Shown here: piece by piece, positions 19,628-56,398 of the stretch
Layout: each line of letters opens with the position of its first letter
How positions within the stretch are numbered: position 1 is the stretch's first letter
Assembly (NCBI GenBank): GCA_945860565.1
Contig: CAMAQS010000002.1
Location: 1,951 to 65,950, forward strand
Length of the DNA stretch: 64,000 nt
Direction of reading: 5' to 3'
DNA from: Chitinophaga pinensis
GTDB taxonomy: Bacteria > Bacteroidota > Bacteroidia > NS11-12g > UBA955
The notes under the pieces: generated by a model
Seen by the model: the letters and a program-made list of their open reading frames with translations, nothing else
Told to the model about the DNA's origin: nothing
Databases searched by the model: none
Made by a program: the position numbers and the translations under genes

Positions 19628-19787
19628 AAGTTGGACATTACTGTGACAAATTTCCAATTTCTATACATAAAAATGAGTGATTTTCCTAGTAAAATAAAGT
19701 TGGTAAATCTTAGTTTTTTCGATAAACTTGCCAATTAATGCGTGGAACTTTTTCGCGTTTTATAGAATTAATAGAATACACGAACAT

Positions 19788-22700
19788 ATGAAGGATAAAT
19801 TACTCAGATTAGTATTTACAGCAGCGTTGGGATTGGTGTCCGTTTTTGCACAAGCACAAACCAACTTTGCAGATTTTCGCGTGAAAGCAAGCGATGGAGA
19901 TGGAAAGCCATTGAGTGGGGTGAACGTTAAAATGTATTTAAATGACATTTTAAAAACATCAGATACCACGGACAGTGATGGAAATGCCTTGTTTCAAACG
20001 TTAAACCCGGGAACATACCGTGTTGAACTGTCAAAAACTGGATTTTCTACCCAAAAATATGACGAAATGCAACTAAATGTGGGACTAAATGAGCCCTTGC
20101 AAGCTACCATGACAAATCAAATGGGTGCAGTAATCATTACCAAAAAGAGTACTGGTAAAGTCATAAAGCTGGAAAACAATGATGTCACCATGACTGGTGG
20201 AGCGGCAATTAATAGCGGTCGAAGAGGCATTGGTGCCATCACAGCAACCAATTCTGCAATTATTGAATCTAGACAAGGTATTTCTGTGAGGGGTACACGT
20301 TCAGATGGTAATGGAACATTCATCGACGGGATGAGAACTACAGGTTCCGGTGCAGTTCCTTCATTGGGTGTGGACCAGCTCTCCGTAAATATTGGGGGTA
20401 TTCCTGCCATGTATGGCGATTTAACAGGTGGTGCGTTTTCTTACACAACCAAAAGCGCTACAGAAAAAACGGTTACCATTTTTGAAGGCATTACTTCTAC
20501 TTTGTTAGATCCTTATGGGTACAATTCGGTTGAAGGTTTTATATCTGGACCACTTTGGACAAAAGAATATAAAAACGAAGAAGGCAAAACAGAAAAATTG
20601 GTAAAATTGGGGTATACACTTAACGGAAACGTAGGGTATTACAACGACCCTGATCCAACCAGAACGGGTGTATATGTTTTAAAAGAAGATAAATTAAAAG
20701 AAGTTGAAAACAATCCGTTGGTATTTACACCCAATGGGTTCGTTCACAGCGCATCTTATTTGAAGGAATCAGATTTTGAACGTTTGGCGGCCCGTCCTAC
20801 ATCTGCTCAATATAATGGCAACTTTATTGGTAAATTAGAGTTTAATCCAACGAAATACGTTTCAGTAACTGCATATTCAAGTTATTTTTATGGTGGAGGC
20901 CGTAACGCTACGAACTCAATCATGAACTTTAATGACAATGCCCGAACTGACAACCATACCTTTAGGGCTTACTTACAGTTCAAACAAACCTTTAAGGTGA
21001 AAAAAGAAAGTACCGTAAAAAGTGCCTTTTATACCATCCGTGCAGAATATCAAAATGCGTTTTCTCAGAGTAGAAGTGCAGAGCATTTGGATAACTATTT
21101 TGATTATGGTTATGTTGGAACTTTCCAATCTTACCCTACTCCAGTATTTGCCTATGCAAACTACGATCAACAACAGAATCCAAACAAAGAGCCACGTGTA
21201 GTGCGTGATCAAAACGGCAATTATGTTCAATTACGCAACTATTGGGATCAAATAGGATTTTCAGATACATTGTTAACTTTTAATGCAAGTGAATTAAATC
21301 CTATTCGTGCCCGTTATACTCAAAATATATACGATTATTACGATAGTCGCGGATTCAGAGTTGCAAGTCCACAAACGATTTTGTTAAGTCAGGGTATGTT
21401 GAATGGGTACAATCCGAATCCAGTGTATTCCTTGTGGGCAACCCCAGGAACCATTCCTAACGTTTGGGCTAAATCACAAACTGAAAAATATTCTGTTTTT
21501 GCTTTAGGACAAATGCAATACAAACCTAAAACTGTAAACGGAAGAGAAAGACCTCCACACGATTTACAAGCTGGTTTTTATTATGAGCAAAACATTAACC
21601 GCGGTTACAATCTAAATGCCAATGGTTTATGGGTGTTAATGGGGCAGTTAATGAACAAACACATTTCCGAATTAGATGTGAATAACCCAATTTTAAGTTA
21701 TGACGCAAACGGAGTGTTTACAGATACTGTGAGATACAATCGCTTAATAAACTATGGGGAACAGTCTAATTTTGACCGCAATTTCCGCGATAAGTTAATC
21801 TCACAAGGTGCCAAAGACGTTTATGGAAATTTGGTGAACGAAAGAACATTTGTGGACATCAACTCATTTAAGCCAGGAGATTTTAACATCAACATGTTCT
21901 CAGCAAATGAATTGTTGAACAATGGTAATGGTTATGCCAACTATTTTGGATATGACCATTTAGGTAATAAAGTGAACGGAAAACCAAGTATCAATCAGTT
22001 CTTGAACGATCCAAGTAAACGTACCATCGGTGCATTTCAACCCATTTACATAGCGGCTTGGTTGCAAGACCAATTTCAGTTTAAAGATTTGATTTTCCGC
22101 TTTGGTCTTCGTATGGAAAGATACGATGCCAACCAAATTGTGTTGAAGGATCCTTACAGTTTATATCCAATTCGCACTGCTGCTGAAGTGAAAAAAATTA
22201 ATGGTCTAGATGCAGTTCATCCTTCCAACGTTTCAGATGATGCCTACGTGTATGTAAACGACATGCAATCACCTACAAAAATCATTGGTTATAGAGAAGG
22301 TGATAAGTGGTACAATGCCGATGGTTCTGAACAAAGAAATCCAGAATTTTTAGCCAACCAAACTACCAACGGTAAAATTGCTCCCTATTTGGTAGATTAC
22401 AACAAACAAGAAGTAACTGATAAAACCTTTACCGACTATACCCCGGCCATTAATTTATTGCCCCGTATTTGGTTTTCATTCCCATTGGAACCTAAAAAGA
22501 AAACTTTCTACGTGAGTTATGATGTGTTGGCACAAAGACCAAATGCCGGTGCATCTTTTGTTTCTGTAGATGACATCTATTTCATGAAATTCCGTCAAGG
22601 TTCAACCATAGCAAATGGTTCCTTGGGCTCTCGTCTTAAAACAGATTATGAGGCAGGTTACAAACAAATTATTGGTAAAAAAGAGAATAAAGGTTTAGAG

Positions 22701-23537
22701 TTAAGTGTTGCGTATTCAGAAATTAGAAATGATTTTGGTTTGTATCAAATCAACCAAGGTTATCCTGTTACTTATACAACCTACAGAAACATCGATTTTG
22801 CTACCATAACCAGCTTTAGAGGTAATGTTTACATTCGCGATATTGGTCCCTTAACATTGTCTGCAAGTTATATGTTGCAGTTTGCGGATGGAACAGGTTC
22901 GAATATCAATTCACAGGCGGCATTGATTGCCAGCAATCAACCTAATTTGAGAACTGTAATTCCTTTGGGGGATTTGGATATTCGCCACAATATTAAATTG
23001 TCTTCTACTTGGGCTTGGGGTGGCGGACGCGATTTAAACCGCAAGAATTTATACAAAGGTCCAATGTTGTTTGGCAAGGAAATATTTAAATTTACAAGCA
23101 TCAATATCATTGCAAACACCTACAGTGGTGGACCATATACTCCAACAACCCGTGCGGTTCAAATTGGAGCAGTGGATAGAGCCCAAATTAAGGGTGTACC
23201 ATTTGGAGCGCGTTTGCCTTGGCAGTATAACTTCGATTTAAACTTTACCAAAGGATTCGAGTTGACCCGAAGTGGTGCAAAAAACCCTATTCAATTTAGT
23301 GTTTTCTTGTGGGTGAACAATGTGTTAAATACATGGAATGTATTGGGTGTATTCCCATTCACAGGACAGCCCAACGACGATGGATTCTTGAATTCACAAA
23401 ATGGGCAACTTCTTGTTAAAACGCAGGTGGATGCTCAAAGTTATACCGATTTATATCGCTTGTTTTTAAATTCTCAAACTGGCAACTGGAATGCTCCAAG
23501 AACCATCCGTTTGGGAGTGCGTTTTAATTTAAATTAA
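19788..23537 (+). CDS. Giant TonB-dependent-receptor-like outer-membrane protein (CarboxypepD_reg domain, plug, long barrel)
   Basis: Signal peptide (MKDKLLRLVFTAALGLVSVFAQA), a carboxypeptidase-regulatory-like domain (GTYRVELSKTGFSTQ), a plug-like ISVRGTRSDGNGTFIDGMR, then about 1000 aa rich in beta strands. Start moved to the internal ATG; the ORF track begins at 19728. Confidence 0.6.
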   Translation: MKDKLLRLVFTAALGLVSVFAQAQTNFADFRVKASDGDGKPLSGVNVKMYLNDILKTSDTTDSDGNALFQTLNPGTYRVELSKTGFSTQKYDEMQLNVGLNEPLQATMTNQMGAVIITKKSTGKVIKLENNDVTMTGGAAINSGRRGIGAITATNSAIIESRQGISVRGTRSDGNGTFIDGMRTTGSGAVPSLGVDQLSVNIGGIPAMYGDLTGGAFSYTTKSATEKTVTIFEGITSTLLDPYGYNSVEGFISGPLWTKEYKNEEGKTEKLVKLGYTLNGNVGYYNDPDPTRTGVYVLKEDKLKEVENNPLVFTPNGFVHSASYLKESDFERLAARPTSAQYNGNFIGKLEFNPTKYVSVTAYSSYFYGGGRNATNSIMNFNDNARTDNHTFRAYLQFKQTFKVKKESTVKSAFYTIRAEYQNAFSQSRSAEHLDNYFDYGYVGTFQSYPTPVFAYANYDQQQNPNKEPRVVRDQNGNYVQLRNYWDQIGFSDTLLTFNASELNPIRARYTQNIYDYYDSRGFRVASPQTILLSQGMLNGYNPNPVYSLWATPGTIPNVWAKSQTEKYSVFALGQMQYKPKTVNGRERPPHDLQAGFYYEQNINRGYNLNANGLWVLMGQLMNKHISELDVNNPILSYDANGVFTDTVRYNRLINYGEQSNFDRNFRDKLISQGAKDVYGNLVNERTFVDINSFKPGDFNINMFSANELLNNGNGYANYFGYDHLGNKVNGKPSINQFLNDPSKRTIGAFQPIYIAAWLQDQFQFKDLIFRFGLRMERYDANQIVLKDPYSLYPIRTAAEVKKINGLDAVHPSNVSDDAYVYVNDMQSPTKIIGYREGDKWYNADGSEQRNPEFLANQTTNGKIAPYLVDYNKQEVTDKTFTDYTPAINLLPRIWFSFPLEPKKKTFYVSYDVLAQRPNAGASFVSVDDIYFMKFRQGSTIANGSLGSRLKTDYEAGYKQIIGKKENKGLELSVAYSEIRNDFGLYQINQGYPVTYTTYRNIDFATITSFRGNVYIRDIGPLTLSASYMLQFADGTGSNINSQAALIASNQPNLRTVIPLGDLDIRHNIKLSSTWAWGGGRDLNRKNLYKGPMLFGKEIFKFTSINIIANTYSGGPYTPTTRAVQIGAVDRAQIKGVPFGARLPWQYNFDLNFTKGFELTRSGAKNPIQFSVFLWVNNVLNTWNVLGVFPFTGQPNDDGFLNSQNGQLLVKTQVDAQSYTDLYRLFLNSQTGNWNAPRTIRLGVRFNLN

Positions 23538-23554
23538 TTTAGAAAGGATTAGTA

Positions 23555-26500
23555 ATGAACATGAAAAGAACCGGACTTATATTGCTAGGATTAAGCATTG
23601 TCCAAATCGCTTTTTCTCGCCCAGTTGAAAATATCAAAGGGGTAGGAAAGAAAATTATTACAAAAAGAGCGGGTGCTTTCGCAAATACTTGTGATCCAGC
23701 TTCAGCTTCTGTGGATTTGGACATCAACAACGTGCGCACCAAGTTGCTCAATGGGGGTGATATGTGGTGGGATTTGAACAATCCCAAATACGAAATACCC
23801 AAGATTAGTGATCCAAATGCAGTAAGAAAACATTCTCTGTTTGCTGGAGCTATTTGGATTGGCGGAAAAGACAATGGAGGGAATCTTAAATTGGCTGCCA
23901 TGACATACCGACAGTTTGGATCTGATTTTTGGCCTGGGCCTTTGGACACAACCACTGCGGCAACAGATCCTTTGCGTTGTAAATCTTATGACCGCATGTG
24001 GAAGGTTACACGCGATGAATTGGAAGAGTTTGAAAATTCAAAATATTTAACACAAAGTGCGGGTATTCGAGATTGGCCAGGTGGAACAGACCGTGCTGTT
24101 AAAATTGGTGCAGAAGCGGCTTATTTGGCTCCCTATAAGGAAGTTGTTCAAGACATGGTTTACAATCCTTTTGATGGAGAACATCCTGTTCTAGATGAAC
24201 GCAGACCCAATGCAGACAATGGCGTGGATAAACAACCCGACATGTTTATTTGGTGGGTTTATAATGATAAGGGAAATATTCATACTGAATCAACTGGTCA
24301 ACCCATTGGTGTGGAATGTCAAACCACAGCATTTGCGTTTGCTACAAATGATGAGGTGAACAATATGACCTTTTATTCTACCAAAATTATCAACCGTGGT
24401 TTTACCACCTTGAACGATTGTTATATGGGACAGTGGGTAGATGCCGATTTAGGTAACTATGCCGATGATTACGTGGGATGTGATGTGGGTAGAAGTTTGG
24501 GTTTCTGTTACAATGGCGACGACGACGACGAAGGAGTATTAGGTTATGGATTGAATCCACCAACAATTGGTGTGGATTATTTTGAAGGTCCTACAGATAC
24601 TGCGGGCAATCAAATGGGATTGAGTCACTTTATGTATTACAATAACAACTCTGATCCTATTCAAGGGAATCCAGATAGAGCCAATCCAAATAGCTTTTAT
24701 AACTTCTTAAGAGGTAAATGGAAAGGTGGTCAGAATGTAACATGGGGCGGAAACGGTTTTGGTGGTGCACGTACAACCAACTATATGTTCCCCGGTTGCA
24801 CAGATCCGGCTTTTGCAGGTGAATGCTGGGATGAAAAATCTGCAGGAAATCCGCCTGCCGATAGACGTTTCATACAATCAACAGGTCCTTTTGTTTTAAA
24901 ACCGGGACAAATCCAACGCATCACTGTTGGGGTAGTTTGGGCTAAAACAACCTCGGGTGGTGCACAGGGGTCTTTGAATTTATTGAAATTGGCTTCAGAT
25001 AAGGCACAAACCTTGTTTAACAACAATTTTAAAATATTGGATGGACCAGATGCACCAGATATCGAGATTCAAGAATTGAACCAAGAATTGGTATTGAAAT
25101 TTTTGAATACCAATTCAACCAAAGTAGAAAATTATACCGAAAAATATAAAGATGCGAACAACCGTGAGTTGACGTATAAGTTTGAGGGTTATGTCGTGTA
25201 CCAATTGAAAGATGGAACAGTGAATACAGGTGATTTGGATAATATAGATAAAGCACGTTTGTTGTTCCAATGTGACGTTGAAAATAAGCGTGGACAAATC
25301 ATCAATCGTGTTTTTGATCCTAAACTGTCTCAACTTATTCCAGTTGAAAAGGTGGATGGAGCAGACAATGGAATTCAACATACGTTTAGCATCAAAAATG
25401 ATTTGTTTGCTACTTCTTCTAATACTTCGCTCATAGATTTTAAAAATTATTATTATATGGTTTTGAGTTATGCCATTTTATCGGATGATTCATTGCAAAC
25501 AGATCCAAATCAGTTTTTGGCTGGTAGAAGAAATATAGGTGTTTACAGAGCCACTCCACACAAAACGGAACCTGAAAACTTTGGTACGGAATTACAATCG
25601 GTGTATGGAAGCGGTCCAAGTTTAACCCGTATTTCTGGTAGAGGAAATGGCGGGATGTCCTTGGAATTTACAGAAGAAACAGTGAAAGAAATCCTTTCAA
25701 ACAATGTGGTTCTATTTCCTAAATATATTAACGGTGCTGGTCCAGTTAAAATAAAAGTGGTGGACCCATTGAAAGTGCCAAAAGCCAAATTTGAATTTTT
25801 CGTAAAAGAGAGAACGGCATCAAATTTCACAGCCTTAAGGGATTCAATGACATCAAATGCGGATTGGATTTTAGTTAAAAAAGGCGAAAATGGCAATGAT
25901 ACTATATTCTCAGATACCACATTGAAGCAACGTTTTGAAAGCGTACAAGGAAGGAGAAGTCTATATAATGCTACGAAAGAAACATTGGCCGATTGGGGAT
26001 TAAGTATTGAGGTAAATCAAGTATTTAATCCTGGTGAAAATGCCGCTGCAGACCCTTCAAATGGTGTGCTTGACTGGAATGTAGAATGGGAGGACAATGG
26101 CAGACAATGGTTAACTGCAGTTGTAGACAATGATGCTCAAAGTACTGCAACATCGGGTAGTATTTGGTTAAATTGGATTCGTGCTGGAAATAATGGTAGA
26201 GGTGTTAGCCCATTGGATGGTTATATTCATGACTTTTTCCAAAGCGACGGAACAACGCCATTGGATCCAGGTCAGGCATTTGAACGTATTTGGAATGGTC
26301 GAATTGCGCCTTACGGATTAACCGCTCGTGAAAAATACAGTTCAGTAGCTGGCAGAAACACATTTGGTTTTGCATGGTCAGGCAATACGTCTTGGTTGCA
26401 GAATCCTTTGGCTGAAATCCACTCTTTTGAATTGGTTATTACCAAGGATAAATCAAAATGGACCCGTTGTCCTGTTCTTGAAATGGGTGATGATGAAGTG

Positions 26501-27484
26501 AAAAACTCTACTGAAGGCCAAATGGCTAAATTCAATATGCGTTTGGCTACCTCAAAAGATAAAGATGGAAACGACATTCCTGGCAGCCAAGGTTTGAGCT
26601 ATTTCCCCGGTTATGTTATCAATTTGGAAACCGGTGAACGCATGAACATTGCATTTAGTGAAGACAGTTATTTGGGTGGCGAAAATGGTCGTGATATGAT
26701 TTGGAATCCAACAGATGTAGTTATCAACGACAATGGAAATTATCCAGCCATAGGTGGAAAACACTTCTTATATATTTTTGGAAGTGGTAAAGGTGGTATA
26801 ACCCGCAACATACAAGGGGAAAGATATATGGGCGAAAGCGAAGCTAGTTTTGATAGATTCAAAAAAGGATTGCAATCAACCACTCCAGGTGGGGCACCTG
26901 CGAATCTTGAAAAAATTAGAATGATGTCTCAAGTAACATGGGTTATACCAACCTACTTGGCTTCTGGTTATTCCATGAAAAATGGTATTCCTCCAACAGA
27001 TGTTAAAATCAAAGTACGTGTGCGTAAAGCCTATACAAACTTTGAAACAGGTGATGACAGAAATGCCGTTAAAGATGGAAGTGGAAATGTTCGCTATAGT
27101 TTGCCAATGTATGAGTTTGACGGAGCGGAAATTGCACCAAAAATTGGAAATGACATTGAAACCAAAAACTTGGATCTGGTGAATGTTGTTCCCAATCCTT
27201 ATCGTGGGTACAGTAAATACGAAAATAGCCCTATCGATTCTAGGGTGAAAATCACCAACCTACCACCAGATTGTACCATTACAATCTTTGATATGGCTGG
27301 TAACCTTATTCGTAAGATCAATAAATCGGATGAGTTCACTTATTATGAGTGGGATTTGAAGAATAACAGCAACGTTCCAATTGCGAGTGGTTTGTATTTG
27401 ATACACGTTAAAGCACCAAATTTGGGAGAAAAAGTTGTTCGTTGGTACGGTATTATGCACGCAGTAGATTTAGACACCTATTAA
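23555..27484 (+). CDS. Large (1309 aa) secreted protein with T9SS type A C-terminal sorting domain; PorU-like role possible by synteny but catalytic motif not seen
   Basis: Signal peptide. The C-terminal 90 aa (VVPNPYRGY...ITIFDMAGNLIRKI...SGLYLIHVKAPNLGEKV) fit the Por_Secre_tail pattern. Lies 17 nt after the upstream gene and 4 nt before the PorV-like gene. Confidence 0.5.
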   Translation: MNMKRTGLILLGLSIVQIAFSRPVENIKGVGKKIITKRAGAFANTCDPASASVDLDINNVRTKLLNGGDMWWDLNNPKYEIPKISDPNAVRKHSLFAGAIWIGGKDNGGNLKLAAMTYRQFGSDFWPGPLDTTTAATDPLRCKSYDRMWKVTRDELEEFENSKYLTQSAGIRDWPGGTDRAVKIGAEAAYLAPYKEVVQDMVYNPFDGEHPVLDERRPNADNGVDKQPDMFIWWVYNDKGNIHTESTGQPIGVECQTTAFAFATNDEVNNMTFYSTKIINRGFTTLNDCYMGQWVDADLGNYADDYVGCDVGRSLGFCYNGDDDDEGVLGYGLNPPTIGVDYFEGPTDTAGNQMGLSHFMYYNNNSDPIQGNPDRANPNSFYNFLRGKWKGGQNVTWGGNGFGGARTTNYMFPGCTDPAFAGECWDEKSAGNPPADRRFIQSTGPFVLKPGQIQRITVGVVWAKTTSGGAQGSLNLLKLASDKAQTLFNNNFKILDGPDAPDIEIQELNQELVLKFLNTNSTKVENYTEKYKDANNRELTYKFEGYVVYQLKDGTVNTGDLDNIDKARLLFQCDVENKRGQIINRVFDPKLSQLIPVEKVDGADNGIQHTFSIKNDLFATSSNTSLIDFKNYYYMVLSYAILSDDSLQTDPNQFLAGRRNIGVYRATPHKTEPENFGTELQSVYGSGPSLTRISGRGNGGMSLEFTEETVKEILSNNVVLFPKYINGAGPVKIKVVDPLKVPKAKFEFFVKERTASNFTALRDSMTSNADWILVKKGENGNDTIFSDTTLKQRFESVQGRRSLYNATKETLADWGLSIEVNQVFNPGENAAADPSNGVLDWNVEWEDNGRQWLTAVVDNDAQSTATSGSIWLNWIRAGNNGRGVSPLDGYIHDFFQSDGTTPLDPGQAFERIWNGRIAPYGLTAREKYSSVAGRNTFGFAWSGNTSWLQNPLAEIHSFELVITKDKSKWTRCPVLEMGDDEVKNSTEGQMAKFNMRLATSKDKDGNDIPGSQGLSYFPGYVINLETGERMNIAFSEDSYLGGENGRDMIWNPTDVVINDNGNYPAIGGKHFLYIFGSGKGGITRNIQGERYMGESEASFDRFKKGLQSTTPGGAPANLEKIRMMSQVTWVIPTYLASGYSMKNGIPPTDVKIKVRVRKAYTNFETGDDRNAVKDGSGNVRYSLPMYEFDGAEIAPKIGNDIETKNLDLVNVVPNPYRGYSKYENSPIDSRVKITNLPPDCTITIFDMAGNLIRKINKSDEFTYYEWDLKNNSNVPIASGLYLIHVKAPNLGEKVVRWYGIMHAVDLDTY

Positions 27485-27488
27485 TTTT

Positions 27489-28607
27489 ATGCTGATGAAA
27501 AAAGTTTTTAAAAATATAAAAATTGCAAGCTTGGGTTTATTGCTTCTAGGCACGAACATGGCTTATGCTGGAAACCCTGAAAGACAAGGTCAAGCAGGGG
27601 TGGCTCAATTGACCATAAATGGTTGGGGTCGTTCAAGTGGATTTGGTTGGGCAAGTGGAGGTAGAGTTACAGGTGCCGAAGCAATGTTTATGAATGTTGG
27701 TGGATTAGACCGCATGGAAAATAAGACTGAACTAGTTTTTGCCCGTACAGAATGGTTAATGGGTTCTGGAATTGGAATCAACAATTTGGGTTTCGGAATA
27801 AAAATGGGTGAAGATGGTTCCGCTGGTACCTTGGGTGTGCAAGTAATGCAATTTGGTATTGATCCAATTGAAATTACTACTGAAGAGAATCCTTACGGTG
27901 GTATTGGAACTTATAGAGTTAACATGACCAACATCGGCGTTTCTTACAGTAAGAGTTTCAGTAATAGCATTTCTGCAGGTGTAACTGCCCGCTTGGTTTC
28001 AGAAGGCATTCCGGATGCAAGTACTTCAGGTTTTGCGCTTGATGCCGGGGTTCAATACACCACTACATTGTTGCCAACTGCCAATAAATTGAAAAGAAAT
28101 GACTTTAAGTTTGGAATTTCAATGAAAAATATTGGTCCAGATTTGTCCTATTCTGGCGATGGCTTAAGTTATAAAGCCTTAATTCAGAATGGTACTTATG
28201 AGAAAACGATTCAAGTAAAAACAGACGTAGTTAAGTTGCCCGCATTGTTAAATATTGCCGCTTCTTATGATTTTAGATTGGATTCTGATCCCAACCAGTA
28301 CGACAATAAATTGACGGTAGGTTTTGGTTTTACGAACCATTCTTTTAGCGCAAACCAAACGACACTCTCAGTGGAATACGATTATAAGAAAATGTTGAGT
28401 ATACGCGGTGGTTACTGTTATCAAGATGGAATCCTTTCAGAAGACACAAGAACATCAGCGTTTACTGGGCCTTTCGCTGGAATTAGTTACGACTGGCACG
28501 TGAATGATGAGAATTTAGTGTCGTTGGATTATAGCTACAGAGCGACAAATCCATTTAATGGAGTTCATTCTTTTGGGATTCGTATCGGATTAGGTAAAGC
28601 AGAATAA
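27489..28607 (+). CDS. porV: FadL-family outer-membrane beta-barrel, PorV (LptO)-like T9SS shuttle protein candidate
   Basis: Signal peptide. N-terminal AGNPERQGQAGVAQLTINGWGRSSGFGWASGG...AMFMNVGGL matches the FadL/PorV N-terminal hatch pattern. Glycine-rich amphipathic strands; about 372 aa. Confidence 0.5.
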   Translation: MLMKKVFKNIKIASLGLLLLGTNMAYAGNPERQGQAGVAQLTINGWGRSSGFGWASGGRVTGAEAMFMNVGGLDRMENKTELVFARTEWLMGSGIGINNLGFGIKMGEDGSAGTLGVQVMQFGIDPIEITTEENPYGGIGTYRVNMTNIGVSYSKSFSNSISAGVTARLVSEGIPDASTSGFALDAGVQYTTTLLPTANKLKRNDFKFGISMKNIGPDLSYSGDGLSYKALIQNGTYEKTIQVKTDVVKLPALLNIAASYDFRLDSDPNQYDNKLTVGFGFTNHSFSANQTTLSVEYDYKKMLSIRGGYCYQDGILSEDTRTSAFTGPFAGISYDWHVNDENLVSLDYSYRATNPFNGVHSFGIRIGLGKAE

Positions 28608-31664: not shown

Positions 31665-31732
31665 TATTTTGTTGGGCAACCATTTTAAACCAAAAACAAT
31701 CTTGCTATAAATCCGCGAGATGGAATTACAGA

Positions 31733-32272
31733 ATGGCAATAGAAAACCATACCAACGAGAGGGAACTTGTAGAGAATTGCGTAAAAGGAGTGAAGTCCGC
31801 ACAAGAAGCATTTTACCTACAGTTTTCTGGTGTTTTGTTTGCAATCTGTCTTCGATATTCAACGGACAATGAAATGGCCCAAGATATGTTTCAAGATTCA
31901 ATGATAAAAATATTCCAAAAGCTTCGAGATTTTCGATTTGAAGGTTCTTTGGAAGGTTGGCTTAAAAGAGTCTGTGTAAACCATTGTTTGGATTCTCTTA
32001 AACGGAGTAAAGCAAAATTTAATGAATCTATCGATGAAGCCCATTCGAATATAGAGTCTGAATTCAAAACCGATTCACAGATTCAAATGAATCAACTAAT
32101 GGACTTGCTTCAAAGATTGCCTGTCGGATACAGAACAGTATTCAACCTCTACGCCATTGAAGGATACACGCACAATGAAATAGGAGTTTTATTGGGGATA
32201 TCTGAAAGTACAAGTAAAACGCAGCTTTTTAAAGCAAGAAAATGGTTACAACAATATTTAAATCATGGGTAA
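31733..32272 (+). CDS. ECF-type RNA polymerase sigma-70 factor
   Basis: Region 2 (FQDSMIKIFQKL...WLKRVCVNHCLDSLKR) and region 4 HTH (YTHNEIGVLLGISESTSKTQLFKARKWL). Confidence 0.8.
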   Translation: MAIENHTNERELVENCVKGVKSAQEAFYLQFSGVLFAICLRYSTDNEMAQDMFQDSMIKIFQKLRDFRFEGSLEGWLKRVCVNHCLDSLKRSKAKFNESIDEAHSNIESEFKTDSQIQMNQLMDLLQRLPVGYRTVFNLYAIEGYTHNEIGVLLGISESTSKTQLFKARKWLQQYLNHG

Positions 32273-33380
32273 TCCAAATGAATCAAATATAGACAACTTG
32301 TTCAGAAATGAATTGGGTAAGGCATCGGTGCAACCCCCAGCTCAACTATGGGCAAATGTTTCCAGTCAAGTTGGGACCCATTCTGCTGCTGCACAAACTG
32401 TTGCAGTGAAAGCTACTGTTAGTTCAGTTAAAATATTGTCTTGGATAGCCGCTTCGGTCGTTTCCATAGCTGCAGGAGTTGTAGTTTACAATCATTTGGG
32501 AGAAAAAAACATCCCCCAAAAAACAAAAGAAACGACTCTTTCTAACCCAAGTCAGAATATTTCAGAAAAAGCACAGTTGACATCCCCCAAAACTGAAAAA
32601 GCCGAAGGAATAAAGTTTGCTAAACCAGCACCACCGCTGCCTGATTTTTCAAGAAGTGTGTTTTTCAGAAGTTTGCCGAATGACAATGTTGAATCTCAAG
32701 GACAAATGGGTAAAGTTTTATCAGACGAATACGTAAAAGTTAATACTGAAAATCAAGGAGTAAATAACCAGATTAAGGATAACGAAGTCTCCCCAATATT
32801 TGCGAATTCTGCGAAAAATAATTCGATAAAATGCCGCGGTTATTACGAAAAAACAATAACCCAACCTGCAGAAAATGCAGTTGAAATTGGAATAAGCGGC
32901 TTAAAAGGAGAATACACTGTAGACTTCGGAAATGGTAAAACTATGAAGAGTTCGGGTGAAATGTTAACCTTTAAGTGTGAGTATTATGTAAGATCTGCGC
33001 AATATTTCAATGTGAAAATTGGAGCAAAAATGGATGGGCTTTGCAATGATTCCCAAATGGTGAAGGTTTTTGTTCGCCCTAATGAAGATGAAAGTCAAAC
33101 CTTAATTCCCACAGTCTTTACTCCAAATGGAGACGGCAAGAACGATTCATTTTTTGTTCGGATTATACGTCCAGAGAAATTCGAACTGGTTGTGATTGAT
33201 TTAAAGGGTTCTATTGTTTTTAAAACCAATGAATTAAATCACAAGTGGGACGGTAAATACCAAGGGGTAATGTGTAAGGAGGGTGTGTACAGTGCAATTA
33301 TTCGAAGCCAGTATTCAGGAGAAAATAAAGAAAATATTCAAAGAGTTAAAGTGAATTTAATGTATAATAACAACGATTAA
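32265..33380 (+). CDS. Bitopic anti-sigma-like membrane protein with extracytoplasmic PKD-like + CHU_C (T9SS type B C-terminal) domains
   Basis: The start overlaps the sigma gene stop by 8 nt. A roughly 55-aa hydrophilic N-terminus, then one transmembrane helix (ILSWIAASVVSIAAGVVVY). A PKD-like YTVDFGNGKT. The C-terminal LIPTVFTPNGDGKNDSFFV...GVYSAII... is a CHU_C/gliding-associated CTD. Confidence 0.5.
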   Translation: MGNPNESNIDNLFRNELGKASVQPPAQLWANVSSQVGTHSAAAQTVAVKATVSSVKILSWIAASVVSIAAGVVVYNHLGEKNIPQKTKETTLSNPSQNISEKAQLTSPKTEKAEGIKFAKPAPPLPDFSRSVFFRSLPNDNVESQGQMGKVLSDEYVKVNTENQGVNNQIKDNEVSPIFANSAKNNSIKCRGYYEKTITQPAENAVEIGISGLKGEYTVDFGNGKTMKSSGEMLTFKCEYYVRSAQYFNVKIGAKMDGLCNDSQMVKVFVRPNEDESQTLIPTVFTPNGDGKNDSFFVRIIRPEKFELVVIDLKGSIVFKTNELNHKWDGKYQGVMCKEGVYSAIIRSQYSGENKENIQRVKVNLMYNNND

Positions 33381-33516
33381 CTTAAGCAAAATAGTAAGAA
33401 AAGAAATTAAAATTATGAAACAGTTAGATAAATATCAAAAAATCCTCAGGCCAAATGCTTTGGCTTTATGGAGTAAATCGCCTATTTTTGAAATTTTACA
33501 ACCCAAATTAGAAAAT

Positions 33517-36500
33517 ATGAAAGGATTGTCCTTGTTAATGAAAGGTTTAATGGTGGTGCTTTTTACCACTGTTTTTTCGGTGAATGATGTATTGGCGCAG
33601 ACTTGTGTGATTACGTATGACGGTTCTGCCTGTGTGGGTGTTCCTATTCGTTTTACGGGTTCTGCCTCTGGTACCGGACACGAATGGACCTTTACAGATG
33701 GTGGAGTAGACAACAAAACCAGTGGTACAGTAAATGTAAACTTTGCCTTTAAAACGGCGGGTACAAATAAAGTAACCTACATTACAACAGTAAATGGAAC
33801 TAAGTGTACGGCAACTTTAAACATTACAATCAAAGAGAAACCAGAAATTAAATTAAACATTATTACATTAGACAGTCAATGTTTTTTGAACAACCTGTTT
33901 TGTTTTACAGACAGCACCAAAAATAAGAATGGCGCAAAGATTGTAAATACCAAATATGTTGTTTCTGATGGTCAGTTGTTTGAATATGATTTTCCACCAT
34001 CAGTGATGCCAAATCAATTGTGTTTTTCAATTCAAGACGTAAGAGGTGGTTCATTTGACTTATATACTGAAACAGTAGACGAAAATGGTTGTGTAGATAC
34101 CATGAACTGGAAAGGTGCTGTATTTGTTCGCGAAAAAATTGGTGCGGCATTTACAAGTAACAAACCAGTACAATGTGATAGTGTACAAGCCAAAATTAAA
34201 AATGTTAGTAGAATTAGCCAAAGTGCAGTGAAAAGCATTATTTGGTATTGGGGGGATGGTTCAACAAGTACCGAATGGGGTCCAGATATTAACAAATGGT
34301 TTTATGGACAAGGTGTTTATGATTCCAAAATGATTATAGAAACCTATGATGGATGTAAAGATTCATTTAAAATGTCAGCGACTGCTACTGTATTCCAGTC
34401 TAAAGCTCGAATAATAACCGATAAAGATTCTACTTGTATTTCTGCACCCGAAATTAAATTCTCTGTAAATGTGGTACCATCAGGTGCTTCTGGATTGTTG
34501 TGGAATTTTGGTGACCCGAATTCTGGTCCACAAAACACTAATGTCAGAACATGGTCTCCTGCTCACTCATTTACAGGCTTAGGCCCATTTTTGATTCGTT
34601 TGTCTTATACGCATCCAATTTGTGGTCCACAAGAGGCATACGATACAATTATTATATTGGGACCCTCTTCAGGCATTGAAGCGGCCTTCCAAAGAGTGCC
34701 AGATTGGCAAGTTTTCCAGTGTCCAAAGGACATCATGGATACGGTATTCTTTACCCGAAATTTATCAACTTTTTACCATAACGACCACGATTATACCGAC
34801 GACGATAGTACGTTCTACAAAGCTGGGGGTTCTGCATTGGGTCATAATTTCCAAAAGGCACCAAATGGTAAACCCATTCAAATTTGGCAAAAGCCTTTGC
34901 GCAATGAAAAGAATCTCAATGGAACATCAACTGTTTATGCAGGCGGAACCATTGCACCAGGTGGCGGAAATGATGCATTAAAACGTGAACGCGTTTGTGC
35001 CACTCGACTATGGGATTTTGGCGATAATTTTGGTTCGAAATGTACGACGGATATTACACGAAACAAGAATATAAATGTAAACTGTGCGTTTTCTCATGAT
35101 TCCACACCTTTTCACTATTATAAGTCATGGGATTTGGTGTTGTTATCTGATTTCAAGAGTGCTCCAATGGAAGATGCAATCTTTATAGACAGCAACGGTT
35201 TATGTAAAAGAGTAAATATTTTCCCTGATACATTTTTCTATATTTTTTATGATACAATCGTTACCATTCCTCAAACGGCTGCGGATAGTGCTGATTATTT
35301 AGCCAGTGGAATAAAAGGAATTGCTTCATACAAAAAAGAGAAGGTGTTTAAAGGAAAGGGTGAACGCTTCATGGAAGACTTTGTGATAATGAGACTTCGC
35401 GCCGGTGACACTGCATGGGTGAGTCCTGTAGGGGGATCTGGTTATTCTCGATTAATTGGTCCAAGGGATACATTGCTAAGACCAAAACAAACTGTTCAAT
35501 TGCGTTCTGATGGAGATTGGGCTGAATTTTTATATACTGTGCATTTAAAGAGAGATACTTTACCTAAAGCTGTATATGGAATACGCACGGCTAAAGGCGA
35601 AAAACCGAATATTATTGATTCATTTAAACGCATTCCTCAAGGAAAAATGGGCTTTGATTATTTTATTAATTATAACAGATGGAGACAATTGTACTATGCA
35701 AGAATTCCAGCATGTAACAATGTGAAATTAACACACAAAGATACTTGTCACCCATTGAAATGCGAAAGTGAAGCAATTAAACAACTTTCTATGCTACACG
35801 CCAATGCGGGTGGTGTTGGAAGTGGATTGATTAAAGACGCGGTAGAATGTTTGGGTTCTCAAAATCCATCCTATGGTGTTACATTTATATTGAGTGATTT
35901 GAAACCGGGATGTACTTTCACCGATGTTCAAATAAATTATGATACTTTTTGTGATCCGAATGCATGGGTAGGTTTGGCTGGATTGTCTCCAGGAGGCAGA
36001 CCTTTGAATCCTCCATTGCCATTCTGGAATACAGGTTACCAATTGGCAGGAAATCCTCCAAGTAGATATTCTCAAACGTATAGCCCATCTGCAGTGTGTA
36101 ATACAGCAACAGGTTGCGTTACCGTAGGTATCATTGTTGGTAATGGTATTGCTAAACCAGGTGGGAATAACGCTAAGCGTCCATTGTGTCAAGATACTCA
36201 GTACTACGATCGATTTGCTTGTTTCCCATTAATAGATACAGATTTTGAAATTGTAACACCTTTGAAAAATGCATTGGGTGATTATAAAATTTGTAAGTGG
36301 GATGAAATTATAGCAAGACCGATTAAAAATAATAAAACCAAAATTCGTGATTTGAAATCATTGCGTTGGTTGTTGCAAACCGGTGATGCTGCGCCAACTT
36401 GGTCTAGAAGCTGGAATACCTACATACAAGAAGATTATTTCCACTACCAAGATAAGGTTCCTGGAAAAAATCCAAAATACTTATACAACTATATGGTTCA

Positions 36501-38988
36501 AACCCGTGGTTCTGAAACGCCACGTCAGTTGGATTGCTCAGACGAGTGGTCTGATGGTACCTCTAAGCGTTTTGACGGTCCAGATACTTTATTCACTGCT
36601 GAAATAAGAGATTATACAATTGGTGCAGACGTTTCTGCTGTTTGGGATAGAATCAAAGGTCGTTTAGAAGCACGTGGATTTGATCCATTTGCAGTGCCCG
36701 ATACCACCATAGCAAAAATGATTTGGAATAACAAGGGAGTAATTGGATCTCCAAGTTCTGGTGCTTATGGTTGTATTGATACCGCAGGTTTTGGTAAAGA
36801 CATTAAATTCTACTTTATACCAAACCCAGATTCTACTACTGTTTTACACCATAGAGATTCTACCATTATACCTTTAGATTCTTGGGTTAACCCATTAACT
36901 AAACAAAAAATAGCCGCTTACAGATTTGTTCCACGTTGGTCTGGTTTTCATATTTTGAGTTTGAGTATGACATCTTCAAACGGTAAATGTGATAAAGTAG
37001 GTGCATTCCCAATTATAGTTGGTTTTGCCATGGGCTTAAAAATCGCCGATACATTGGTTTGTCAAGATCAAGGAAGCACGTTAAAAGTAGCTCCGGATTA
37101 TCGTTATTGGTCAACCGATCCACAAAATATGGGTCAATTCGACTGGAACTACTATTGGAATGCTGATCCAACTCAAAATCCAACACAATACGATTATTGG
37201 AAGGATGCAGCGCGTATTGCAGCTAGAAATCAAGGAGATACAAATAAAGAGTTCCGTACCCGTTGGGATTGGAGTAAAGCCGATGATGACATAAATGATC
37301 CTCAAACTATATTTGGTGGTTCACCTTATGGAGGGGCCGGTTCTGGAACTACAAATAATCCTTGGGTACAATTGGGTGGTGGTAGCACAATTTATTACAC
37401 CAACGATTCAGGAGTATATACCTTTAGAAATATTGCAGGTGACTCTACTGGTTGCCAAGATACCATTACTAAGCGCGTGTTTATCTCACGTTTAGATGTG
37501 AAATTTGACTTGAACCTCGAAGTGCCAAGTTGTAACTCCATCATTGAGTTCTTTGACTCTTCATTATTACATGATCCTTGTAATTGGGCAATTAAAAACT
37601 GTAATGGTCCTAGCCCAGTGACCTGCGATTTCGTAAATAAATGGTTTATTAATTGGGGTGATGGTTTAGACAACTATTACGAAAGAAATGCTTCAAATTT
37701 ACCTGGATTACCTCCTCGTATTGCACACAAATACACCCGCAATGGCTGGTTCCAGATTAAATATCGTTTGACCACCAAATTGGGTTGTGAAGATACATTT
37801 AGTCGTTGGTTAAAGATTCCTGGCCCACGTCCATCTTTCGAATTCACAACCAAAGCAGGAAACTTTGTTACCATTTGCGCAGGTGATAGCATTGAATTTA
37901 CAAACACAACCGACAGTGCTGGTCCTCAGTCTGATTGGACTTGGTACTTCGGAGATGGTGAAATTTTTAATTCTAGCACCAAACAGTTCTATCATGCTTA
38001 CAAGAATCCAGGAGTATACCGCATTTTCTTGGAACAATATGATAGTTTGATTGTGCCTCCGAATATTCGTAAATTCTGTCCAGCAATCTTCCCTGATACA
38101 CCTTTCCAAGCTGCATTCACTGTATTGGTATTGCCACGTGATTCAGTTAGAGGGTTGGTTTTGAGACCAAGTATTTGCCCAGGTGATAGCAACATATTCA
38201 TTGATAGCTCAGATGCAATTTTGAAAGTATATAAATGGAAATTTGAACACTATAGCAGTGCATTGGGTCAATGGGTAACAGACACCGCAACCACTACAAA
38301 CAGGCGTTATGCGAAGATGTTTAGTGATCCAGGTGTTTATCGTGTGACGCATTATGCAGAATATAATCCTTCACATCCTAGACCTTGGTGTCCTACAGAT
38401 TTGAAAACTATGAATTTCACAGTGGATTCAGTGGTTTCTGATTTTGACATCGATTCTTCAAACAAACCGGACTTTAATTTTACCCGTACTGATCTAAATG
38501 GCGTAGAATGGCGTTGGGGCTTTGGTCACCAATATGATATCACCAAGAACCAACCTCGTACCTTTATTGAAAATCTGAAATCAACCGATAGAATTGTTAA
38601 ATGGTCTTACGATAGTTCTAATGTGTATTGGGTTTGTTTAATTACCAAAAACTCAACTGGTTGTGAAGACACCATCTGTAAGAAGGTAACCGTAGACTTG
38701 TTTGTTTATTTGGCAAACGTCTTTACCCCTGGTAATGGTGACAATAAAAACGATGACTTTAGAGTGCCAATTCAAGGTCAAGACATCTTCGAAATTAGAA
38801 TCTTTAACCGTTGGGGTGAAAGAGTCTTCTTCTCTGAAGATCCGAAAGTTAGATGGAATGGTAAAATCAATAATGATGGACCAGAAGCACCTTCAGGAAC
38901 ATACTTCTATCAATTAGAATATAGATTTAAAGGAAAAGAGAAAGTGAATCGTGTGAATGGTTCAGTGAACTTGATTCGTCCTAACTAA
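33517..38988 (+). CDS. Giant (~1820 aa) cysteine/tryptophan-rich cell-surface protein with CHU_C (T9SS type B) C-terminal domain; adhesin-like
   Basis: Signal peptide (MKGLSLLMKGLMVVLFTTVFSVNDVLAQ), many repeated Ig/PKD-like modules, and the terminal NVFTPGNGDNKNDDFRV...GTYFYQLEY... CHU_C domain. The ORF track start at 33415 is trimmed to the signal-peptide Met. Confidence 0.7.
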   Translation: MKGLSLLMKGLMVVLFTTVFSVNDVLAQTCVITYDGSACVGVPIRFTGSASGTGHEWTFTDGGVDNKTSGTVNVNFAFKTAGTNKVTYITTVNGTKCTATLNITIKEKPEIKLNIITLDSQCFLNNLFCFTDSTKNKNGAKIVNTKYVVSDGQLFEYDFPPSVMPNQLCFSIQDVRGGSFDLYTETVDENGCVDTMNWKGAVFVREKIGAAFTSNKPVQCDSVQAKIKNVSRISQSAVKSIIWYWGDGSTSTEWGPDINKWFYGQGVYDSKMIIETYDGCKDSFKMSATATVFQSKARIITDKDSTCISAPEIKFSVNVVPSGASGLLWNFGDPNSGPQNTNVRTWSPAHSFTGLGPFLIRLSYTHPICGPQEAYDTIIILGPSSGIEAAFQRVPDWQVFQCPKDIMDTVFFTRNLSTFYHNDHDYTDDDSTFYKAGGSALGHNFQKAPNGKPIQIWQKPLRNEKNLNGTSTVYAGGTIAPGGGNDALKRERVCATRLWDFGDNFGSKCTTDITRNKNINVNCAFSHDSTPFHYYKSWDLVLLSDFKSAPMEDAIFIDSNGLCKRVNIFPDTFFYIFYDTIVTIPQTAADSADYLASGIKGIASYKKEKVFKGKGERFMEDFVIMRLRAGDTAWVSPVGGSGYSRLIGPRDTLLRPKQTVQLRSDGDWAEFLYTVHLKRDTLPKAVYGIRTAKGEKPNIIDSFKRIPQGKMGFDYFINYNRWRQLYYARIPACNNVKLTHKDTCHPLKCESEAIKQLSMLHANAGGVGSGLIKDAVECLGSQNPSYGVTFILSDLKPGCTFTDVQINYDTFCDPNAWVGLAGLSPGGRPLNPPLPFWNTGYQLAGNPPSRYSQTYSPSAVCNTATGCVTVGIIVGNGIAKPGGNNAKRPLCQDTQYYDRFACFPLIDTDFEIVTPLKNALGDYKICKWDEIIARPIKNNKTKIRDLKSLRWLLQTGDAAPTWSRSWNTYIQEDYFHYQDKVPGKNPKYLYNYMVQTRGSETPRQLDCSDEWSDGTSKRFDGPDTLFTAEIRDYTIGADVSAVWDRIKGRLEARGFDPFAVPDTTIAKMIWNNKGVIGSPSSGAYGCIDTAGFGKDIKFYFIPNPDSTTVLHHRDSTIIPLDSWVNPLTKQKIAAYRFVPRWSGFHILSLSMTSSNGKCDKVGAFPIIVGFAMGLKIADTLVCQDQGSTLKVAPDYRYWSTDPQNMGQFDWNYYWNADPTQNPTQYDYWKDAARIAARNQGDTNKEFRTRWDWSKADDDINDPQTIFGGSPYGGAGSGTTNNPWVQLGGGSTIYYTNDSGVYTFRNIAGDSTGCQDTITKRVFISRLDVKFDLNLEVPSCNSIIEFFDSSLLHDPCNWAIKNCNGPSPVTCDFVNKWFINWGDGLDNYYERNASNLPGLPPRIAHKYTRNGWFQIKYRLTTKLGCEDTFSRWLKIPGPRPSFEFTTKAGNFVTICAGDSIEFTNTTDSAGPQSDWTWYFGDGEIFNSSTKQFYHAYKNPGVYRIFLEQYDSLIVPPNIRKFCPAIFPDTPFQAAFTVLVLPRDSVRGLVLRPSICPGDSNIFIDSSDAILKVYKWKFEHYSSALGQWVTDTATTTNRRYAKMFSDPGVYRVTHYAEYNPSHPRPWCPTDLKTMNFTVDSVVSDFDIDSSNKPDFNFTRTDLNGVEWRWGFGHQYDITKNQPRTFIENLKSTDRIVKWSYDSSNVYWVCLITKNSTGCEDTICKKVTVDLFVYLANVFTPGNGDNKNDDFRVPIQGQDIFEIRIFNRWGERVFFSEDPKVRWNGKINNDGPEAPSGTYFYQLEYRFKGKEKVNRVNGSVNLIRPN

Positions 38989-39006: not shown

Positions 39007-39046
39007 AAAAAGAGGGGCTGCCAAGTATGGTAGCCCCTCTTTTATG
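39007..39046 (+). terminator. Rho-independent terminator (hairpin copy A)
   Basis: A 13-bp stem, aagaggggctgcc/ggtagcccctctt, with one G-U pair, followed by TTTTAT. Confidence 0.5.
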
Positions 39047-53615: not shown

Positions 53616-53619
53616 AGTT

Positions 53620-56293: not shown

Positions 56294-56398
56294 AATATTT
56301 TATTTCAAATTTATAAATTGGCCACCTTTTGGTGGCCTTTTTTGTTTCTTTTGGGGGATATTTTTCGAAGATTAAATTTTGTTTTGTACCTTTTCAAA

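Follow-up and report, generated by a model that had tools for sequence, protein, structure and literature searches.

A putative envelope-spanning anti-sigma factor with a type IX secretion sorting domain, encoded between an extracytoplasmic function sigma factor and a type B adhesin in Bacteroidota

Introduction

The locus considered in the present study raises the question of why a protein that ends in a CHU_C domain, the type B sorting domain of type IX secretion systems (T9SS), should be encoded in overlap with the gene of an extracytoplasmic function (ECF) sigma factor and directly ahead of a giant adhesin gene. The locus lies in a stretch of 64,000 nucleotides (nt) from an assembly deposited as Chitinophaga pinensis (GCA_945860565.1, contig CAMAQS010000002.1, positions 1,951 to 65,950), which is hereafter referred to as the window and to which all coordinates refer. 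An initial annotation of this DNA, made from the sequence alone, had interpreted the middle protein, of 371 amino acids (aa), as an anti-sigma factor built around a secretion-sorting domain. As described below, it is very probable that the sigma factor encoded upstream has its cognate anti-sigma factor in this 371-aa protein. We also regard it as probable, with considerable room for doubt, that the three genes form an autoregulated operon for an ECF21-like sigma factor, a cognate anti-sigma factor with the layout of the Dma/Reo proteins and a type B adhesin, in which the CHU_C domain of the anti-sigma factor docks on the T9SS and couples the release of the sigma factor to secretion.

Envelope-spanning anti-sigma factors that end in a module directed to the outer membrane (OM) are already known, having been described in 2024 as the Dma family (PMC10927553). 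The pairs Dma1/Das1 and Dma2/Das2 of Bacteroides thetaiotaomicron and Reo/EcfO of Bacteroides fragilis each combine an ECF21 sigma factor with an anti-sigma partner, and the latter consists of an N-terminal sigma-binding region, one transmembrane (TM) helix, a long disordered tether and an eight-stranded OM barrel (PMC10927553). For Dma1 and Reo, the binding of the sigma factor by the N-terminal region and the spanning of both membranes were shown experimentally; C-terminal fragments of Dma1 were found in vesicles, and proteolytic release after a signal on the OM side was proposed for the Dma class (PMC10927553).

Results

Regarding the first gene of the trio, an open reading frame (ORF) at 31733-32272 on the + strand encodes a 179-aa protein that matched Sigma70_r2 (40.9 bits), Sigma70_r4_2 (57.5 bits) and TIGR02937 (92.3 bits, cut-off 42.9), and is an ECF (group IV) sigma-70 factor with sigma-2 and sigma-4 domains only. 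The best NCBIfam equivalog model, NF058625 (GFO_1088/PG0214 family), gave a score of 92 against a cut-off of 130, which places the protein outside that family. Relatives at 37-52% identity all came from assemblies whose gene content is of the Bacteroidota type, and the partners of eight were Dma-type anti-sigma factors, which bear an OMP_b-brl_2 domain; identities to the sigma factors that partner other CHU_C-bearing anti-sigma factors were 41-45%. The sigma factor is predicted to be ECF21-like. The ORF for the 371-aa protein occupies 32265-33380 (+), and its start codon and the stop codon of the sigma gene share an 8-nt overlap (ATGggTAA), such that the initial annotation of a sigma gene with an overlapping partner was borne out.

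The 371-aa protein opens with a hydrophilic region of 56 aa followed by a single TM helix, in agreement with the N-terminus of roughly 55 aa and the one helix noted initially. Residues 1-55 (32265-32429, +) constitute an N-terminal module that is presumed to be cytoplasmic and to bind the sigma factor; they carry the motif NIDNLFRNEL...VQPPAQLWANV, which is kept across families, and form helices at residues 6-18 and 27-33 in a low-confidence AlphaFold model. The TM helix (ILSWIAASVVSIAAGVVVY, residues 57-75, 32433-32489, +) is the sole segment with a Kyte-Doolittle value above 1.6, with a 19-residue maximum of 2.13, and the same low-confidence model has a helix spanning residues 55-76. The initial annotation had proposed a search with hidden Markov models (HMMs) for an anti-sigma N-terminal domain, and none was identified in this way: no Pfam family matched residues 1-80 at E<=10, including the zf-HC2, RskA and RseA_N-like models of Class I (ZAS/RsrA/RseA) anti-sigma factors, and the NCBIfam model NF052375 ("antisigma") matched the 371-aa protein weakly (19.5 bits, with the cut-off at 100; E 7.8e-4).

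A relationship emerged at the level of profiles. For the CHU_C class, 25 loci in different genomic contexts were collected. When the N-terminal module and TM helix of this class were aligned using hhalign with those of the class bearing OMP_b-brl_2, a probability of 98.6% and an E value of 1.4e-15 were obtained. This comparison is a proxy, in which the barrel-bearing partners of related sigma factors stand in for Dma1 and Reo themselves; these partners correspond to the published Dma family. Because the N-terminal module and TM helix are homologous to those of Dma-type partners, a sigma gene is adjacent in all loci examined and an ECF-type promoter is conserved, the 371-aa protein is, from its sequence and genomic setting, very probably a cognate anti-sigma factor, and this part of the initial annotation stands. 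No match to OMP_b-brl was found in the protein, the C-terminus of which is CHU_C. Since the OM barrel that defines the Dma family is absent, we regard the 371-aa protein as a sister architecture and not as a strict member.

The window pair and the Dma system have in common an occurrence in Bacteroidota only, an ECF sigma gene immediately upstream, a sigma-binding N-terminal region, one TM helix and a disordered tether, and the sigma factors of the Dma type share a GCAAC promoter motif with those of the CHU_C class. They differ at the C-terminus, where CHU_C (here behind a beta-sandwich) takes the place of the eight-stranded OMP_b-brl_2 barrel; the link to the OM would accordingly run via the T9SS or a partner barrel in the window, whereas Dma inserts a barrel of its own. 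The regulated neighbour is a T9SS adhesin in the window and a NigD-type or vesiculation gene in the case of Dma, and the positive charge ahead of the TM helix is much weaker in the CHU_C class than in the Dma type.

The hydrophobic segment starts at residue 57, behind an N-terminal module of approximately 50 aa that is conserved throughout the family. As predicted from this position, it is a membrane anchor and not a cleavable Sec signal peptide, which upholds the initial view of an anchored protein as opposed to a cargo with a signal peptide.

The pairing recurs widely. Close orthologues of the 371-aa protein (69-96% identical) keep synteny in metagenome contigs, and more distant CHU_C matches share the same build, consisting of the N-terminal motif, TM helix, linker and CHU_C, and follow directly after an ECF sigma gene in unrelated contexts; a sigma gene lay directly upstream of the CHU_C-bearing anti-sigma gene in every locus examined. 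A scan using the sigma alignment, with one genome per species, recovered 80 Bacteroidota loci at 37-52% identity, in nearly all of which the downstream gene opens with [DE]xLF[RK]..L....P....W..[IV], followed by a TM helix. When 69 of the partners were typed using Pfam, CHU_C was assigned to 21 with the window included (20 of 68 in named genomes without it), an OM barrel (OMP_b-brl_2 or OMP_b-brl) to approximately eight and PKD_4 to eight. The CHU_C-partnered sigma factors formed two clusters in a rough neighbour-joining tree, and their association with CHU_C is therefore stable and not sporadic. An exhaustive HMMER search of 1.84 billion cluster representatives (50%-identity clusters) with the full-length profile yielded 451 representatives at E<=1e-30. 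Among the best 150 matches, 139 were short proteins; a TM helix at residues 25-110 together with a C-terminal CHU_C was present in 136 of these, and 128 matched the N-terminal motif. With 25 loci in different contexts and hundreds of protein clusters, the arrangement recurs far beyond chance, and the conservation in related genomes on which the initial annotation had depended was thus found. Among cultured strains, at least Crocinitomix catalasitica ATCC 23190 (L055, NZ_JHXV01000015.1) carries a member of the family, and the names given to members in NCBIfam and source annotations are just "T9SS type B sorting domain-containing" or "gliding motility-associated".

A cargo gene often completes the arrangement. 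The anti-sigma-type protein is followed by a 1946-aa cargo in L004 (402-aa anti-sigma type) and by an 879-aa SprB/PKD/CHU_C cargo in L005-7 (321-aa anti-sigma type), and cargo orthologues hold the same position in L001-3, L009, L011 and L012. In L004, L005, L011, L012, L014, L015, L018, L029, L074 and L081, a CHU_C cargo gene begins 3-69 nt downstream, and its product opens directly with a signal peptide. Counting the window and L009, a CHU_C cargo lies directly downstream in at least 12 of the 25 loci; in L008, the sigma/anti-sigma pair stands alone and a non-cargo gene follows.

Some variations on this arrangement were observed. A second CHU_C cargo, with NIDO or CUB/P-domain plus PKD, is present behind the first at L014:13717-15843, L018:13409-15958 and L029:13571-15760. 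In one Flavobacteriales clade (L014, L015, L018, L022, L023 and L029), the TM helix is preceded by two tandem copies of the motif LF[RK]E[RK]F.GHE..V.P..W..I. A member of this clade, L023:9530-12781, encodes a 1084-aa protein in which an anti-sigma N-terminal module (54% identical to that of L014) is fused to a complete NIDO-PKD-CHU_C cargo. The cargo part shares 56% identity with the cargo that comes second in L014 and L029, and the joined gene arose either naturally or through an error in a nanopore-based metagenome assembly.

Between the TM helix and the C-terminus of the 371-aa protein, residues 77-200 (approximately 125 aa; 32493-32864, +) are predicted to form a disordered linker or tether. 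Disorder-promoting residues account for 73% of this segment, and the model shows no secondary structure from residue 77 to approximately 202 (predicted local distance difference test, pLDDT, <35). The tether is also the fastest-evolving part of the protein, with 57-63% nucleotide identity to L009, and the spacing from the TM helix to CHU_C was 106-228 residues in 23 of 25 class proteins, with a median of 185. It is followed by a beta-sandwich module of unassigned family at residues 201-275 (32865-33089, +; model strands at 205-271, pLDDT 54-77), which is optional in the family, minimal members lacking it. The initial annotation had read this region, around YTVDFGNGKT, as a PKD-like module; however, PKD HMMs gave no match at E<=10, the best BLASTP match to the cargo had an E value of 0.058, and Foldseek returned weak matches to single PKD domains (target-normalised TM-score 0.5-0.6, E 0.02-0.07; model pLDDT 54-77). 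Since the full-length AlphaFold model has a mean pLDDT of 45, these fold matches are a hint only, and the module may have an Ig/PKD-like fold.

The C-terminal T9SS type B CTD-like domain (CTD, C-terminal domain; 33105-33380, +) matched CHU_C (PF13585, residues 281-353) at 50.3 bits against a cut-off of 27. It retains FTPNGDGKND, WDG and GVY, and has DLKG in place of the [ND]RWG loop. The assignment to CHU_C thus held for PF13585 and fell just short for TIGR04131, for which the 371-aa protein scored 33.9 bits and the cut-off is 35; this cut-off was cleared by other members of the family, namely P0011, P0147, P0017 and L055, at 35.4-40.9 bits.

The replacement of the loop is a property of the whole class. 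When the CHU_C domains of the 25 anti-sigma proteins were aligned with those of 15 cargo proteins encoded in these loci, FTPNGDG.ND, W.G and G.Y.Y were kept by both, whereas the [ND]RWG loop was present in one of the 25 anti-sigma domains and in 13 of the 15 cargo domains (Fisher p = 1.1e-7), the lone anti-sigma domain with an intact NRWG being that of the L023 fusion. RWG was likewise absent from the last 100 residues of all 136 cluster representatives. Five conserved motifs of type B CTDs (A-E) were each required for the secretion of a SprB-CTD fusion in Flavobacterium johnsoniae (PMC12618676), and we infer that the [ND]RWG loop is one of these. Within the 371-aa protein, dN/dS was lowest in CHU_C (0.05-0.06), followed by the beta-module (0.08-0.11), the N-terminal module (residues 1-55, 0.17-0.44) and the linker (0.22-0.66); CHU_C is the most constrained segment and is under strong purifying selection. 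The initial description of the extracytoplasmic part as a miniature of the cargo, with PKD and CHU_C, was rejected at the sequence level: the two CTDs of the window are 32% identical, the optional beta-module has neither a PKD match nor similarity to the cargo, and the anti-sigma CHU_C belongs to an RWG-less subclass of its own.

A putative ECF-type autoregulatory promoter is located at 31676-31702 (+), approximately 30 nt before the sigma start, with GCAACC as the -35 element (31676-31681), a 17-nt spacer and a -10-like ATCT (31699-31702). The motif GCAAC[CT]-N16/17-(G)CATCT was found approximately 30-60 nt upstream of the sigma start in 53 of 73 related loci, and in 24 of the 25 loci of the CHU_C class. 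With a position weight matrix (PWM) trained without the lineage of the window, the site at 31675-31705 was the top match in the 64-kb window (score 21.3; maxima in shuffled sequences, mean 14.7, sd 2.3), and this region is nearly invariant in L001 and L009. A conserved site of this kind is typical of ECF operons that regulate themselves, and GCAAC-N17-CATCT would be expected to function in this way. The second-best PWM match, at 20243-20273 (+) with a score of 21.2, falls on codon 172 of a giant CarboxypepD_reg/TonB-plug-like gene (ORF 19728-23537); it was treated as a chance match, being inside a coding region and near the shuffle maximum (21.0).

At the other end of the trio, a hairpin resembling an intrinsic terminator (39008-39043, +; 16-bp stem with eight G-C pairs and a T-rich tail) closes the operon, and no comparably strong terminator was found from the sigma gene up to where the cargo gene ends, an interval with just a weak 3-GC hairpin at 33549. 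Because strong terminators are absent between the genes and one follows the cargo, and because the gaps elsewhere are 3-69 nt, co-transcription of the cargo with the sigma/anti-sigma pair appears to be the rule among the loci that have a cargo gene, which number at least 12 of 25.

The cargo ORF extends over 33415-38988 (+) and encodes 1857 aa from the first ATG. The protein contains three PKD_4 stretches and a CHU_C domain (residues 1766-1842, 59.2 bits) with NRWG present, and scored 39.2 against the TIGR04131 cut-off of 35. Its initial designation as a CHU_C protein was thus confirmed and, as judged by its signal peptide, passenger domains and RWG-containing CHU_C/TIGR04131, it is a regular T9SS type B cargo. 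The true start is probably not at 33415 but at ATG 33517 (Met35), which gives 1823 aa and the signal peptide MKGLSLLMKGLMVVLFTTVFSVNDVLA/Q (MKGLSLL...). The 100 nt before ATG 33517 have no substitution among the window, L001 and L009. A substitution-free stretch among the same three sequences covers 33455-33575, in overlap with what is annotated as codons 1-34 of the cargo ORF, and 33484-33573 is the sole 90-nt bin with 100% identity across the 7.5-kb operon (mean 82.6%). The stretch at 33455-33575 is probably a promoter or leader and not coding. The consensus of housekeeping promoters in Bacteroidota is TTTG-N19-21-TAnnTTTG, and a putative promoter of this type is present at 33460-33491 (+), inside the annotated 5' end of the cargo gene, with TTTG at 33460-33463, a 20-nt spacer and TATTTTTG at 33484-33491. 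TTTG-N20-TATTTTTG is predicted to function as a housekeeping-type promoter, and it probably adds sigma-independent expression of the cargo in the window.

The flanks of the trio are housekeeping genes, with greA, a HIT-family gene, lgt and holB upstream and fhs (opposite strand) and mnmE downstream. The window also contains a PorV/PorQ-family gene (27489-28607) and type A CTD proteins, and the host therefore possesses a T9SS. The host is an uncultured member of the Bacteroidota; the matches to its MnmE beyond species-level relatives are at approximately 66% identity. A conserved cluster at 19728-28607 (+) encodes proteins of 1269 aa (CarboxypepD_reg) and 1309 aa (with a weak type A CTD/PorZ-like C-terminus) together with the PorV/PorQ-family OM protein (NF033709, 116 bits); its gene order is repeated in L001-3 and L009, and it may be a T9SS-related module of its own. 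Further along the window, at 52839-55567 (+), 56318-59737 (+) and 61588-63960 (-), there are genes resembling those of an aromatic meta-cleavage pathway (FAA hydrolase, acetaldehyde dehydrogenase and DmpG-like aldolase), as well as those for a GH92 mannosidase that bears an F5/8 type C domain and for a 789-aa type A sorting-domain protein (Por_Secre_tail, 42.5 bits).

Discussion

In the mechanism that we propose, the N-terminal module would hold the sigma factor at the inner membrane at rest, as is suggested by its homology to Reo and Dma1, and the tethered CHU_C domain would reach the OM side and dock on the type B branch of the T9SS, either on a PorP/SprF-like barrel or on the translocon. 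Given the membrane anchor and the altered sorting domain, it would not be released in the manner of a cargo. A change in docking, for which engagement or pulling by an active T9SS is the likeliest trigger, would then lead to proteolysis of the anti-sigma factor and release of the sigma factor, and the freed sigma factor would transcribe from GCAAC-N17-CATCT through the sigma, anti-sigma and CHU_C adhesin genes, an order that is read directly from the sequence, such that the output of the adhesin would be matched to secretion capacity. The coupling to the T9SS, the docking partner and the direction of the signal are inferred. Two findings reported in other systems count in favour of these steps: type B CTDs bind PorP/SprF-like OM barrels (PMC9143113, PMC12618676), which supports docking, and a CTD can signal as a ligand in the periplasm even while anchored in the inner membrane, as for PorA with PorY (PMC12152298), which supports the mechanism. 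A bolder version, which we put forward tentatively and consider more doubtful than the explanation given above, is that an RWG-less, secretion-incompetent type B domain on a periplasm-spanning tether serves as a probe of the T9SS, that its engagement or pulling by an energised T9SS or a PorP/SprF-type shuttle leads to the destruction of the anti-sigma factor and switches on the co-encoded adhesins, and that this occurs in a large and unrecognised class of Bacteroidota anti-sigma factors.

Several observations weigh against an operon controlled by docking on the T9SS. An ECF-type promoter directly upstream of the adhesin gene was sought and not found, the best PWM score being -9, and control by the sigma factor would therefore run by read-through; since a housekeeping-type promoter is in addition likely at this position, the adhesin may be largely sigma-independent. 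No PorP/SprF-like gene was found behind the cargo, where the next gene is fhs on the opposite strand, or among the typed ORFs of the window, or in any related locus examined, including after the cargo genes. The initial annotation was correct in noting this absence after the giant adhesin, but not in calling it unusual, because F. johnsoniae has 12 type B substrates, three of which are likewise "orphans" with a shuttle encoded elsewhere (PMC12618676). The next gene is diacylglycerol kinase-like, and not a cargo, in the CHU_C-class loci L008, L019, L024 and L061, and the anti-sigma CHU_C and cargo CHU_C of the window are no closer to each other than unrelated pairs. The loss of RWG could mean that the domain has left the secretion pathway altogether. 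Furthermore, the K+R content of the 15 residues before and after the TM helix is 1.2 vs 2.0 in the CHU_C class and 3.8 vs 1.0 in Dma-type and other partners (all loci and P0141-P0286), such that the CHU_C class has a weak positive-inside signal, by which the topology is not settled, although the net charge of this class (+1.2 before and -0.6 after) still favours an N-in orientation.

With these points in mind, a Dma-like pair in which the CHU_C fold was co-opted as a purely periplasmic sensor, without a link to the T9SS and with, for example, an envelope or environmental ligand or the passenger of the adhesin as its signal, needs to be weighed as the main rival, and we consider it rather unlikely. 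The systematic loss of the RWG loop (1/25 and 0/136, vs 13/15 in cargo) and the requirement for all five type B motifs in the secretion of the SprB CTD fusion speak for a sensor of this kind, whereas the other hallmark motifs (FTPNGDG.ND, W.G and G.Y.Y) are retained and strongly constrained. Similarly, TIGR04131 is below its cut-off for the window protein, and yet related members clear it. Several loci have no cargo gene after the pair, which a sensor independent of secretion would accommodate, but it leaves unexplained the CHU_C cargo directly downstream in at least 12 of 25 loci; in L005, moreover, the anti-sigma CTD is most similar to the CTD of its own cargo (48% identical, with <=37% to any other). 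The absence of PorP/SprF genes from every locus examined also fits a co-opted sensor, and is set against the nature of the alternative C-terminal modules in the same sigma group, which are OM barrels encoded in cis or next door and point to an OM-directed role.

The extracytoplasmic part of the anti-sigma factor may otherwise itself be a substrate of the T9SS, exported after cleavage or by pulling, such that release of the sigma factor reports working secretion in a FlgM-like manner. A C-terminal sorting domain on a tether long enough to reach the OM is what such export would use, and the Dma1 fragments in vesicles, with the proteolytic release model for that class, are in line with it. Efficient export is, however, argued against by the loss of RWG, and cleavage sites are not evidenced. 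L023, in which the N-terminal module is fused to a complete cargo with an intact NRWG, supports the export of such proteins, but it stands alone, comes from a metagenome assembly based on nanopore reads and may be an artefact; we regard this explanation as improbable. Less credible still is a reading of the 371-aa protein as a small T9SS cargo of the ordinary kind, with its hydrophobic segment as a signal peptide and its position next to the sigma gene due to chance. Annotation pipelines label such proteins as type B sorting domain proteins only, and a start at the GTG of codon 48 would give MKATVSSVK plus a hydrophobic stretch resembling a signal peptide; nevertheless, the approximately 50 residues before the TM helix are conserved as protein across very divergent loci, with a dN/dS of 0.17-0.44 for residues 1-55 and a match to the N-terminal motif in 128 of 139 representatives, the start codon overlaps the sigma stop codon, and a sigma gene is adjacent in every locus examined. 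Given this conservation and the homology of these residues to the Dma-type N-terminal module, a cargo with a signal peptide, including one that starts at codon 48, was rejected.

A T9SS sorting domain that feeds into an ECF sigma factor has a counterpart in the PorA-PorXY-SigP system of Porphyromonas gingivalis, in which PorA is a type A cargo in free form, its CTD binds the sensor kinase PorY and the signal passes through the two-component system to SigP and the genes for T9SS components (PMC7712824, PMC12152298). The likeness to the window extends to the membrane anchor, since PorA still signals when tethered to the inner membrane. The difference is that, in the window, the anti-sigma polypeptide contains the CTD, which is type B-like, within its own chain, and that the obvious target is the cargo gene. 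In comparison with canonical pairs of type B cargo and shuttle, such as SprB/SprF and PG1035/PorP (PMC9143113, PMC12618676), the 1857-aa protein is a regular cargo of the "orphan" kind, without an adjacent shuttle gene. The 371-aa protein shares FTPNGDG.ND, W.G and G.Y.Y with these cargos, and differs from them in its conserved cytoplasmic module and anchor, the lack of a cleavable signal peptide, its RWG-less CTD and its pairing with a sigma factor.

Anti-sigma activity is coupled to the OM or to a secretion machine in other systems as well: a transducer in the OM passes its signal to FecR, and FlgM is exported, and thereby removed, through the apparatus whose late genes it controls. The likeness of the 371-aa protein to FecR and to FlgM/sigma-28 is a functional analogy only, which draws in part on the discussion in PMC10927553. 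There is no sequence relationship, the window pair includes neither a TonB-dependent transducer nor a FecR domain, and FlgM is soluble and fully secreted.

The initial annotation had stated that an anti-sigma factor built from a secretion-sorting domain was undescribed. This was overstated with regard to the architecture, because an envelope-spanning, OM-targeted anti-sigma factor was known from Dma (PMC10927553); it holds, as far as can be seen, for the sorting domain. The Dma papers make no mention of the T9SS or its CTDs, and no description of CHU_C, a type B CTD or the T9SS in combination with an anti-sigma architecture was found in the openly searchable literature, a scope that leaves out ECF-classification supplements and subscription-only texts. 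What appears to be new is a T9SS sorting domain at the OM-directed position of an envelope-spanning anti-sigma factor.

Among the related loci, those with an anti-sigma factor without CHU_C (L031-L089) have short partners of 216-330 aa, and the next gene encodes a separate OMP_b-brl_2 protein in 11 of 39 and a 4HBT thioesterase in nine of 39. This suggests a "split Dma" arrangement, in which the barrel is encoded in trans. A CHU_C domain docked on a PorP/SprF-like barrel would then be a third solution, beside the barrel in cis and the barrel from the adjacent gene.

How bacteria match the production of T9SS cargo to the capacity for its secretion is little understood outside the PorXY-SigP-PorA system of P. 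gingivalis. Since the sigma-binding module and tether are the same as in Dma-type anti-sigma factors, with the OM barrel replaced by an altered sorting domain and a T9SS adhesin as the regulated neighbour, the present family is a natural experiment on this matching, and also on the signal that Dma-type anti-sigma factors sense. Because its members are annotated as ordinary cargo, genome surveys count too many cargo proteins and a layer of regulation goes unseen. The RWG-less signature provides a handle on the features of CTDs that separate docking from translocation, and the cultured carrier C. catalasitica ATCC 23190 makes the coupling hypothesis directly testable. If the CHU_C domain is a probe of the T9SS, the anti-sigma factor would be a checkpoint for secretion competence in this system, with a logic like that of FlgM/sigma-28 in the flagellum.

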